Positions 4,315-56,715 of a DNA stretch of 64,000 bases are shown here, piece after piece. The number at the start of each line of letters is the position of its first letter. Position 1 is the first letter of the stretch. The notes beneath the pieces are model-generated. The model worked only from the letters and a program-made list of their open reading frames with translations, did no database searches and had not been told where the DNA came from. The stretch spans positions 8,990,001 to 9,054,000 of the forward strand of contig OZ024753.1 in NCBI GenBank assembly GCA_964016885.1, read 5' to 3'. The translations under genes and the position numbers were made by a program. This DNA is from Eledone cirrhosa. Its lineage: Eukaryota.

Positions 4315-4375
4315 TTCATTCTGACGACTGAAGATAGACACAACATCTGTCTTCAAGAAACCACTGGTAAATGAA
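4315..4375 (+). ncRNA. type I hammerhead ribozyme
   Basis: TTCATT CTGACGA C[TGAAGATAG loop CTGTCTTCA]A GAAA CCACTGG TA AATGAA; 6-bp stem I, GUA site. Confidence 0.85.
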
Positions 4376-4432
4376 ATAATTATCTTATGTTGTTTATTAC
4401 ATAACTAATAAGCTCTGTAACCTACATATAAC

Positions 4433-21827: not shown

Positions 21828-21861
21828 AACAATAATAACAAAACAACAATAATAATAATAG

Positions 21862-22238
21862 TTGTTTCTACTTTAGGCACAAGGCCAGCAATTACCCAGT
21901 GCGTTACTGGTACTTTATTTTATCGACCCCGTAAGGATGAAAGACGAAGTCAACCTCGGCGGGATTTGAACTCAGATTGTAAAGGGACGTAACTGTGCTG
22001 CAAAGTATGGCGTCCGACCCTCTACCGATTCTGCCAATTCACCTAATAATAATTGTTTCTACTTTAGGCACAAGGCCAGCAATTACCCAGTGCATTACTG
22101 GTACTTTATTTTTTCGACCCCGTAAGGATGAAAGACGAAGTCAACCTCGGCGGGATTTGAACTCAGATTGTAAAGGGATGTAACTGTGCTGGAAAGTATG
22201 GCGTCCGACCCTCTACCGATACTGCCAATCCACCACCC
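21862..22238 (-). mobile_element. two tandem SINE-A copies
   Basis: Near-identical direct copies. Confidence 0.85.
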
Positions 22239-23114: not shown

Positions 23115-23149
23115 ATATATATGTATATGTGTATATATATATGTATGTA

Positions 23150-23228
<79 letters not shown>

Positions 23229-23371
23229 ATATATATGTATATATATATATGTGTATATATATGTATATATATATGTATGTGTATATATATATATATATAT
23301 ATGTATGTGTATATATATATATATGTGTATATATGTATGTGTATATATATATATATATGTGTATATATATG

Positions 23372-23422
<51 letters not shown>

Positions 23423-23793
23423 GTATATATATATATGTATATATATATGTGTATATATATATGTGTATATATATATGTGTTTATATATATGTGTATGTAT
23501 ATATATATGTATATATATATGTGTATATATATGTATATATATATGTATATATATGTATATATATATGTATATATATGTATATATATATGTATATATGTAT
23601 ATATGTATATATGTATATATATATGTATATATATATGTGTATATATATGTATATGTATATATGTATATATATGTATATATGTATATATATGTATATATGT
23701 ATATATATATATGTATATATGTATATATATATATGTATATATGTATATATATATATATGTATATATGTATATATATGTATATATATGTATATA

Positions 23794-23842
<49 letters not shown>

Positions 23843-24256
23843 GTATATATATGTATATATATGTATATATATGTATATATATATATGTATATATATGTAT
23901 ATATATATGTATGTATATATATATATGTATATATATGTATATATATATGTATGTATATATATATGTACGTATATATATATGTATGTATATATATATATGT
24001 ATATATATGTATGTATATATATATGTATGTATATATATATGTATGTATATGAATATATATATGTATGTATATGTATATATATATATGTATGTATATGTAT
24101 ATATATGTATGTATATGAATATATATATGTATGTATATGTATATATATATATGTATGTATATGTATATATATGTATGTATATATATATATATGTATGTAT
24201 ATGTATATATATATATGTATCTATATGTATATATATATATGTATGTATGTATGTAT
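23115..24256. repeat. long degenerate (TA)n/(TATG)n microsatellite
   Basis: Direct reading; a similar tract occupies 24885-25268. Confidence 0.95.
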
Positions 24257-24257
24257 A

Positions 24258-24884
24258 AAGTAAGTAAAAAAATTTTTAAAATTTTTTTTATAAATATTTT
24301 CTTATTTTACGTCTTTTATATTATTGTTCTGCATCCTCCTGCATTGAACCACCTAGGTACTATGACATAACCTGTGTATTTGCTGGCATGGGCGTGCATC
24401 TGTGCACTTATGTTAGTTGATATATTAAATTATCTATATTTATCTCCAAATCACTGATTTGTCGAGCAAACCTGCCAAAACCACTTCTAAAAAATTTTTT
24501 TTTCTTTGGGGTGTTAGTAGGCGTCAGTCATCTTACCATCCCATTCCTTCTAACTAGCCTCTGTGTCGCGTGATTGATTCTTTAGAATCGGCCATTTGAC
24601 TTGAAGCAGTGAGAATTTCAGTACATAGAATCCAGTCCTCGCCGGCTGTTCTATCTACCGAATTATTATTATTTTTATATGAGCCGCCAGTGTCCGCGCA
24701 TTGCCTGGAGACTTAGCTGAGAATAGACTCCCTGATGACGCAATGAATTCTCGACAGTTGGATTACGTAACTGTCTTTATCCCATTGCAGAAACTAATTA
24801 GTTGGAGTGAAAATTTAAGTAAGTAAGTAAAAATTTTTTTTAAAATTTTTTTTAAAAATATTTTCTTATTTTACGTCTTTTATA
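24258..24884 (+). mobile_element. non-coding hammerhead-bearing element with about 64-bp terminal direct repeats (retrozyme-like or Penelope pLTR)
   Basis: AAGTAAGTAAAAA...TATTTTCTTATTTTACGTCTTTTATAT at 24258-24321 and 24821-24884; (TA)-rich flanks; no ORF. Confidence 0.7.
24727..24808 (+). ncRNA. type I hammerhead ribozyme with extended stem II
   Basis: ACTCC CTGATGA C[GCAATG...GACAGTT/AACTGTC...CATTGC]A GAAA CTAATTAG TT GGAGT; GUU site. Confidence 0.85.
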
Positions 24885-24892
24885 TATGTATG

Positions 24893-24925
<33 letters not shown>

Positions 24926-25048
24926 ATATATATGTATGTATATATATATGTATGTATGTATATATATGTATGTATGTATATATGTATGTATATATATATG
25001 TATGTATATGTATATATATATATGTATGTATATATATATGTATGTATG

Positions 25049-25083
<35 letters not shown>

Positions 25084-25270
25084 GTATATATATATATGTA
25101 TGTATATATATATGTATGTATATGTATATATATATATGTATGTATATATATATGTATGTATATATATATGTATGTATATGTATATATATATATGTATATA
25201 TATATATATGTATGTATATATATATGTGTATATATATATATATGTATATATATGTGTATATATATATACA

Positions 25271-26547
25271 TGTAGACGTGATATATCTTGACTTTGCGAA
25301 GGCCTTTGACAAGGTCGACCACGGAATGATATGTCACAAACTACACGGACTCGGCATAACTGGAAAAGTAGGTGAGTGGCTGCATGGCTTCCTAAGGGAC
25401 AGAAGCCAGGCAGTCGCAGCAAATGGGGCCCTCTCGAGGGAAACACCGATAACAAGTGGGGTGCCTCAGGGGACAGTCCTGGGACCACTACTGTTTTTGG
25501 TGGCTCTCTCGGACATGCCCTCCGTGGTGCATGCAACAACATCCCTCACTAGCTATGCTGATGACACTAAGGTAGCACAGGCAATCAAAAACCCGGCTGA
25601 CGCTGCCCTCTTACAGCAGGATCTGGATGCCATATACAGATGGGCGGAAGAAAACAACATGCAGTTTAATGCTGGCAAATTCCAAGCCCTACAATACAAA
25701 CCTGCAAACACAAACACAAATATAGCGGAACACAGCTACACAGGACCAGGAGGGACCGATATCCCCGTGTCAAAATCGATACGAGACCTGGGCATAGACA
25801 TGAGCGATGATGCATCTTTTTCTTCACACATCATGAAGGTGGCGACAGCATGTAGACGATTCGCTGGCTGGATCTTGAGGACTTTCCTTACAAGAGATCG
25901 AGACACCATGTTGACACTGTGGAGGACTTTTGTCCTAAGCCGCCTGGACTACTGCTCCCAGCTGTGGTCACCCCATAGTGTCAAACTAACCACGGAGCTT
26001 GAGGCAATCCAGCGAAGCTACACCAAGAGGATTGCCAAGATGAGGGAGACAAGCTACTGGGAGAGGCTGAAGGAACTGAACCTCTACTCCTTGGAGCGAA
26101 GACGGGAGAGATACGCAGTGATCTACATGTGGAAAATCCTGGAGGGACTAGCACCAAACTTTGGCATTGGGAGCTGGACCAACCGTCGAACAGGACGTCA
26201 CTGTGTGGTGCCAAAGGTCCCGTCTTCCACATCTAGAATAAGGAGCAGGTATTGCAATAGCCTGGGATTCAAGGGCCCTCAACTCTTCAACAGGCTGCCG
26301 AGGCATCTGCGAGACTTGCATGACGTGGAGGTGGATGTCTTTAAGAAACATCTCGACACCTTGTTATCCAGGATCCCGGATGAGCCCACAGCAAGACACG
26401 AGGGAAACCTAAGGGCAGCAGCAACAAACTCCCTCCTACACCAGTGGCCAACCTATACAGGCTGGAGATAAAATGTGTAGCAACAAGGGCGGTGCCCCAG
26501 CATGGCCTCAGCCGGATGGCTGAAACAGGTAAAAGAGTAAAAGAGTA

Positions 26548-38554: not shown

Positions 38555-39699
38555 TTATCAGCATGAGATCACAAATATTTGTGCATCATACAAAATATAC
38601 CACCTATTTTGCCCAAAGGTATCAGTCCATTCCTAAAAAAATAGCCTTAAATATCTAATCTATCTAATCTGGCCAAGTTTATACTCGCAAATAAGAAGAA
38701 CCAGGGCCACCCCTAGGAGCATTGGATTTGGTATGCTTCATATTTGTTTCAATTGCTGAATCAGGGGTCACTGCTTCACCTGAAGGTCATTAGTTCTCTT
38801 CTAACTCGAGTGGGAGCGCCTTTCCACTGTCAATTTGCATTAATCATCTACAAAGCTGCATTGTTCTCAGAACCACTACACCAGTCTTTCGATGCGTGCA
38901 GCTGGAACTACTGCCACCAATTGATTTGACAGGATCGCAACTCATTTCTACGGCTGAGTAAACTGGAGCAACGTAAAATAAAGTGTCTTGCTCAAGGAAA
39001 CAACACATCACCCAGTCTGAGAATCAAACTCACGACCTTTTGATTGCAAGCCCAATGCTCTAACCACTAAGCCATGTGCCTTCACGACCTTAAAGAACAA
39101 ACCTTTAAAGTTAGTAAAAGTTATAAGAAGACAATTTTATAATAACATCATTCATTTCCACTCCAAATGTACTTCTTTATTAATCTGTAGCACGCTAGAA
39201 ATTGTTATGTATTGCTTCTCTTCACACTGTATCAAGGGGAGATTATTGTGTCACAATTTGTCGCTGATAGCGTGTTAAAGGTTAATATGTGTCTTAAGAC
39301 AGAATACCATTTCTACCAACAGCCACACAGACAATACAGACCAGATATATTTATCATGTCACAAATAATAAAGCAGTTACTTCTCTGACAAGAAACTACA
39401 TATGTATCTACTTACCTGTGCAATGTTGCTCTAATGAACAAAGTGACGAACATTTGTATTACATATTTTTACCTGTTGGAAATTACTTCGTTCGGAATAC
39501 TAAAACATCCATGTTTTCTTTTTCTTTTATTTATGGTTGTTTTATTATTTTGTTGAATTATTTCATTTTTTTTTTTTCTTTTCTTCTAAATATGTGAAAA
39601 AGTCAGAAAAATGTTCGCTTTTTGATAAAAATATAAAAATTGTGAGAGAATCATTGGAATTCTGGATAAAATATCTAATATTTCATTTCATCCCTTTAA

Positions 39700-56615: not shown

Positions 56616-56675
56616 ACTGCCTGATGAGGACATAGCCATTCATTCAATGGCTATCATCGAAATATATATAGCAGT
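56616..56675 (+). ncRNA. type I hammerhead ribozyme
   Basis: ACTGC CTGATGA GGAC[ATAGCCATT loop AATGGCTAT]CATC GAAA TATATA TA GCAGT; in a 170-bp unit between (TA)n tracts. Confidence 0.85.
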
Positions 56676-56715
56676 AAATAAAGGATTATGAGTCATGCAA
56701 TTGACTTATGTTTCG

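Follow-up and report, generated by a model that had tools for sequence, protein, structure and literature searches.

A non-LTR retrozyme family in Eledone cirrhosa with an apparent Penelope-type two-start signature at its insertion ends

Non-LTR retrozymes of metazoans, as described in coral, mussel and axolotl, are tandem or dispersed units without an open reading frame (ORF) that carry one type I hammerhead each, have a GC content below 50% and a highly self-paired monomer, and co-occur with Penelope-like elements (PLEs) (PMC7229834; 10.64898/2026.07.22.740005). From this co-occurrence and from homology to pLTRs, PLEs were proposed to move animal retrozymes (PMC7229834; 10.64898/2026.07.22.740005). 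PLEs leave partial tandems, an inverted truncated arm and a tail at one end, and have a bias toward microsatellites (10.1101/2021.04.23.441226). For an Anolis PLE, two internal starts of reverse transcription that define the tail, with both strands extended, were seen in vitro (PMC11167929). The sections of Li et al. (2026) cited here report a sample without molluscs (10.64898/2026.07.22.740005).

The repeat family described here from Eledone cirrhosa is like the metazoan retrozymes in the respects listed above. It fits the sequence-level definition of a non-LTR retrozyme, the class proposed in an earlier note on this DNA, and appears to resemble a non-autonomous PLE in the way it works. Circular RNAs of metazoan retrozymes have been seen by northern blot, whereas that of the Eledone unit is predicted. 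We assign a probability of about 0.6 to the reading that a Penelope-like RT/GIY-YIG protein copies this retrozyme in trans, with a circular RNA monomer as the probable template, and that the copy under study is a 5'-truncated product.

The copy lies in a window of 64,000 nucleotides, to which all positions below refer. Sequence alignment delimits it at 24258..24885 on the + strand, as a 5'-truncated, single-armed insertion of about 1.1 units of a non-coding repeat of about 555 nt. The earlier note had recorded a 64-nt terminal direct repeat, a hammerhead at 24727-24808, the absence of an ORF and TA-rich flanks, and each of these observations was borne out. The two copies of the redundancy (24258..24321 and 24817..24885, both +) match in 63 of 64 columns, and two insertions, of 2 nt and 3 nt, set the right copy apart; the repeat period is 559-564 nt. 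The left copy consists of an A/T hairpin and an internal copy of start site A; the right copy terminates at site A (CGTCTTTTATAT), one of the fixed 3' ends, and continues into (TA)n. No stop-free frame longer than 52 codons lies wholly within the insertion. On the left is a (TA)n/(TATG)n tract at 23115..24257, likely the target, and on the right another at 24881..25268. The interior had also been described as rich in GC and CpG. The first part holds, with 40% GC against about 10-13% in the flanks, but 15 CpG were observed for 20 expected; the interior is thus GC-richer, not CpG-enriched.

Within the copy, a tail of about 118 nt (24322..24439, +) separates fixed ends A and B and contains a long hairpin in which the subfamilies differ by compensatory changes. 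Site B (AATTATCTATAT; 24428..24439, +) is the second fixed 3' end in other copies and is internal in this one. Counted from the position predicted for the cut in the preceding unit, the 5' end of the insertion is about 17 nt further on. Alignment also revealed a conserved box of the CACGTG type (CGCGTG in the window copy), followed by TGATT, at 24565..24582 (+); position 24568 is A in other samples. We take the box and TGATT to be a possible internal promoter element. A promoter scan with bacterial models, which are irrelevant to this host, remained at chance level.

The hammerhead (24727..24808, +) is a type I motif whose GUU triplet places the predicted cut after 24803, and all of its parts can be read on the + strand. 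Stem I pairs ACTCC (24727-31) with GGAGT (24804-08) and is followed by the core CTGATGA (24732-38). Stem II pairs GCAATG (24740-45) with CATTGC (24783-88); its loop is enlarged by an insert of 37 nt, and its base shows a C-A mismatch. GAAA follows at 24790-93, and stem III is palindromic with 3 bp. Rfam did not match the hammerhead at the gathering score or at E up to 10, and the fold therefore rests on motif reading and covariation. In 16 hammerheads chosen for diversity, 98.6% of stem II cells were paired, with double changes at 3 pairs; 0 of 500 shuffles scored as high, and slid controls reached 34-51%. The constancy of stem III is uninformative because this stem formed part of the search motif. 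A mismatch at the base of stem II is also found in axolotl HHR_Amex2 (PMC7229834; 10.64898/2026.07.22.740005). Compared with the PLE pLTR hammerheads in the cited part of PMC4209133, the Eledone hammerhead has an extra unpaired A before GAAA, and its 3-bp stem III could also fold in the monomer. The GUU triplet and the C-A mismatch may slow the predicted cleavage. In addition, a conserved long-range pairing joins the post-cut GGAGUG (24804-24809) with an internal CA(C/U)UCC (about 24540-24545) and competes with stem I; it could hold the predicted ribozyme off in the monomer. Two other type I hammerhead candidates in the window, with GUA and AUA triplets (about 4317-4376 and 56617-56676, both +), are unrelated to the unit in sequence.

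The unit belongs to an abundant family. A 24-mer from the hammerhead has 1,907 exact matches in the genome, and a 22-mer across the cut, common with older subfamilies, has 9,169. The reversed control patterns of both have 0 matches, so the repeat is not a product of chance. A genome search with the 627-nt query yielded at least 100 matches among the matches listed, with 39 of 508 candidates scored, and the full-length ones were 93-97% identical. The same search indicated that head-to-tail order is normal in the family; the 64-nt repeat is therefore not a locus-specific duplication, the alternative that the earlier note had allowed for. Sixty-eight distinct cut-to-cut units formed a main group of 63, with a mean identity of 95%, and three small groups. 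The subfamilies are 73-88% alike, with representative units of 526-554 nt, and unit length across the family is 526-560 nt. In this length, as well as in the GUU triplet and the 37-nt stem II insert, the Eledone unit is unlike the invertebrate retrozymes of 170-400 nt in the sources cited. The monomer folds more stably than its shuffles (z -4.3 linear), and five circular folds gave z of -4.1, -6.6, -4.6, -7.1 and -2.0. Among the insertions analysed, 23 have at least two consecutive hammerhead units, whereas the window copy has one hammerhead. A plant LTR retrozyme was considered and rejected, as the motif is type I, not type III, and the length of the redundancy varies among copies. A comparison of rare variants for scars of RNA editing gave no A-to-G excess (3 vs 4; 10 vs 15). 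Parts of the unit are present in DNA-like contigs under three organism labels, and none of the data sets listed as containing it is on record as RNA. Three sequencing runs presumed to be RNA matched over no more than a 31-nt stretch of low complexity, which says nothing about expression.

The anatomy of the insertions was parsed at 86 loci, 61 found through the 24-mer on one chromosome arm and 25 as the best full-length matches; two of them (L005 and L009) look like duplicates. The 3' ends fall at two internal sites, A (24321 = 24885) and B (24439), which follow the predicted cut at distances of about 81 nt and about 199 nt, respectively. A predicted hairpin immediately precedes each site, and the one before site B shows compensatory changes. 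A total of 126 arms were classified as A or B, and 119 of these run into (TA)n, with (TA)4 required. The 5' ends are scattered round the unit, and arms reach 3,478 nt with a median of 640. Since 5' ends vary and 3' ends are fixed, the 64-nt redundancy marks where this copy was truncated and is not a repeat built in by design. The earlier note had interpreted it as the mark of copying slightly more than once round a circle; taken by itself the redundancy does not argue for this, as its length only reflects 5' truncation.

Fifty-two insertions consist of two arms back to back. In 42 the ends are A+B, in none A+A or B+B, and in 10 one end was unclassified; one of these 10 became A+B with more sequence. 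Inversion points commonly overlap by 0-4 nt. The single arms comprise 23 A, 9 B and 1 other, and one locus is odd. When target sites were checked for a duplication, the 5' side of single arms was also TA in 18 of 31, and the ends lie in TA tracts. With its two fixed 3' ends and the pairing of A with B, this non-LTR retrozyme carries the two-start tail signature of Penelope elements. As in the Anolis Poseidon PAc, the tail in the Eledone family is defined by two internal 3' ends that lie downstream of the hammerhead (PMC11167929). As with EN+ PLEs, insertions can be 5'-truncated or form partial tandems, inverted ones bear the tail at one end, and the targets are AT-rich or (TA)n (PMC11167929; 10.1101/2021.04.23.441226). 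Unlike EN+ PLEs, the unit has no ORF, and its tail is about 118 nt compared to 30-40 nt. Both Eledone starts have UAU microhomology to the target, whereas the PAc starts are non-homologous to theirs (PMC11167929). The A+B pairing has been counted here (42 of 42 classifiable insertions), unlike in the cited parts of the EN+ PLE accounts. Fixed A and B ends with back-to-back arms are a feature of the Eledone family that the cited sections of PMC7229834 and 10.64898/2026.07.22.740005 do not describe.

The same genome is rich in GIY-YIG elements, with more than 10,000 candidates. In a young autonomous RT+GIY-YIG family, ends that run into (TA)n are likewise fixed at two points: of 30 loci, 16 have the short end, 12 have the long one and 2 were unread, and both two-armed copies seen combine a short and a long end. 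We infer that the machinery is Penelope-type, and it is very probable that this machinery moves the retrozyme. In the Eledone family the Penelope footprint is visible in the insertions themselves, and two start sites on the template can be named. The unit thereby offers a short, protein-free substrate for learning how PLEs make tandem and inverted copies. As a separate observation, the 3' ends at four loci (L061, L067, L078 and L079) carry terminal hammerheads of autonomous PLE families with a TTGAAAA core and GAAACCGGTA, which by eye correspond to the U3-A8 variant in the cited part of PMC4209133.

The nature of the template is less clear than that of the machinery. The cut position is crossed by 114 of 126 arms. 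Over 22 nt, 182 of 189 junctions at the cut are identical, 6 have substitutions and 1 has a deletion, which indicates that the template was continuous at the predicted cut. At 60 polymorphic sites, mismatch was 1.3% between tandem units, 2.3% between arms and 29% between loci, figures in which pairs within long arrays are not independent. The sharing of one haplotype within an insertion argues against jumping among random RNAs. Furthermore, the 23 multi-unit insertions contain 16 haplotypes, which favours a template that any dimer can make, namely a circle. Two insertions complicate this picture. L242 has GUG in two neighbouring units of one arm and GUU in the other arm, and L224 has GUU and GUA units, and for these a single monomer circle is insufficient without later change. 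Overall, we lean slightly toward a circular rather than a linear multimeric template.

Based on these observations, the following course of events is proposed. Tandem copies would be transcribed, and the predicted hammerhead would cut the transcript at GUU, perhaps as a dimer through the palindromic stem III, after which the monomer would be ligated. A Penelope protein would nick both strands of a TA tract, and the DNA ends would prime at A and B, which are both rich in UAU and directly follow a hairpin. Synthesis would then pass the cut position; its DNA outcome, passage without indels for at least one unit, is seen in the copies. The product, likewise seen in the DNA, is one arm, or two back-to-back arms (one A, one B) of one haplotype. 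The enzyme may sometimes slip at initiation and add (CT)n at B, and some insertions later grow in place, as long arrays demonstrate. On this account the window copy would be a single arm, primed at A, whose synthesis ended after 1.1 units.

The strongest alternative, which we nevertheless regard as rather unlikely, retains the same element and Penelope-type machinery but takes the template to be a linear read-through multimer, uncut or cut at its 5' end only. The 5' ends of arms do accumulate just past the cut, being 3.5-fold enriched in the following 60 nt (25 of 85 arms in the set picked by the 24-mer). This enrichment fits linear RNAs with a cut 5' end, if the predicted cut is used; no more than 2 of these ends are 1 nt or less from the cut, however, and the zone itself is the A/T hairpin. 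The mixed-triplet insertions L224 and L242 also count for a linear multimer. In the cited parts of the Anolis study, a PLE inserted in vitro despite hammerhead mutants, and uncut RNA was its main substrate (PMC11167929). Possible sources of long RNAs also exist, as homogeneous arrays of 3-4 units, an array of about 20 units and one of more than 40 kb are present. The first of the long arrays (G000:C4:291005050-291016210; L115 and L221) is an arm of about 20 units with locus-private variants in a higher-order pattern, indicating that the arm expanded in place. The second (G000:C5:84687000-84727000; L243-L245) is satellite-like and at least 40 kb in length, with three stretches seen; it is built of a 526-nt subfamily unit with decaying ribozymes and ends at site B and TA. 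Long arrays had been considered as proof of rolling-circle copying, but with their private higher-order patterns they are no such proof.

The same arrays weigh against the linear multimer. With 16 haplotypes among 23 insertions, each homogeneous over multiple units, each would need a long homogeneous source, whereas the long arrays seen are heterogeneous, with variants private against all other sampled loci. Moreover, the hammerhead stems are kept by compensatory change, and GUG occupies no whole insertion. In the subset of loci examined among the 83 non-GUU sites listed, variants shared by all units were GUA in 12 insertions and GUC in 1, and none had the uncleavable GUG in all units. Where GUG occurred, it was confined to single units, to a satellite-like array of more than 40 kb or to the two neighbouring units in one arm of L242. 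However, the GUA insertions may be one lineage, which makes the triplet test a weak one.

The B ends have a further peculiarity. A (CT)n of three or more repeats separates the element from TA at 10 of 56 B ends and 0 of 69 A ends (Fisher p 2e-4). The longest such tract, in a young copy, has about 20 repeats, and ATCT is duplicated at six further B ends. Internal B sites have no such (CT)n (0/141), and adjacent (CT)3 was found at 12 of 1,304 background TA-tract ends. In seven two-armed cases with (CT)n at B, the opposite end starts directly with TA. Compound (TA)(CT)(TA) targets were rejected as the source, as 0 of the 1,304 background ends have that form. The simplest reading is repeated slippage on template UCU at initiation, and slippage at the 3' ends of LINEs is a precedent. 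It is also possible that later DNA slippage, seeded at the junction, produces (CT)n at B. A more far-reaching suggestion, offered tentatively, is that the Penelope-type enzyme takes one small RNA circle at two sites, stutters, and writes part of the flanking microsatellite, (CT)n at B and perhaps much of the (TA)n, rather than just inserting into it. Both nicked strands of the TA tract would engage the circle and be extended in both directions to give A+B arrays, with a stutter like that of telomerase, a relative of the enzyme; we would sooner expect this suggestion to fail than to hold. The (CT)n at B ends provides a test of whether an enzyme adds microsatellite at initiation, which, if true, bears on the high TA content nearby. 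In the open-access literature searched, there was no report of a cephalopod retrozyme, of counted A+B pairing or of PLE initiation stutter.

An origin of the copies as truncated remains of an autonomous Penelope-like element, with the unit as its orphaned pLTR, is very improbable. The type I hammerhead, the tail, the TA targeting and the inverted 5' arm would all be expected of such remains, and a pLTR origin has been proposed for retrozymes in general (10.64898/2026.07.22.740005). In 103 loci, however, what lies upstream of the units is another unit or a truncation, never an ORF. A PLE protein match was nearby in 7 of these loci, and in 0 of 103 was the element contiguous with a PLE ORF, indicating that it is non-autonomous and not an autonomous Penelope-like element, in which an RT + GIY-YIG ORF would lie between pLTRs. 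Attachment of the copies to Penelope ORFs, which would have refuted the earlier note, was thus not seen. At least four ORF-less subfamilies, 73-88% alike, retain the whole unit, which also counts against this reading. The search for a partner covered a small sample, 50 loci with GIY-YIG and 30 from a single young PLE family, and revealed no pLTR with homology to the unit. Matches at L068 and at L048/L111 were considered as linked pLTRs and turned out to be separate insertions of older subfamilies beside a PLE. The earlier note had raised a partially duplicated Penelope pLTR as the alternative to a retrozyme; the two need not compete, as the element lacks an ORF and at the same time bears the Penelope insertion signature.

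Downstream of the copy is a 5'-truncated LINE-type RT fragment (25275-26468, +) with 398 codons open and a Pfam RVT_1 match, a separate insertion that is presumably CR1/L2-like by its motifs. That a LINE-type protein with L1-like twin priming, or DNA recombination spreading a satellite, generated the family is hardly credible: the presence of this fragment by the same TA tract, the common junction overlaps of 0-4 nt and the growth of some arrays in place could be cited for it, but the fragment starts about 390 nt past the element and outside the TA tract, in other copies the TA at the end gives way to unrelated sequence, the two arms cover overlapping sequence, each from a fixed internal start, which is unlike L1 twin priming, and recombination leaves the fixed ends, the 5' truncation and the A+B pairing unexplained.

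Two minor features of the window may be added. A tRNA-like Rfam match barely above threshold (39013-39076, -) is possibly the head of a SINE. A tandem pair of copies of a 191-nt repeat lies at 21853-22234; the repeat is probably an abundant short mobile element, and by eye it is also present at several unrelated loci (L073, L078 and L130).
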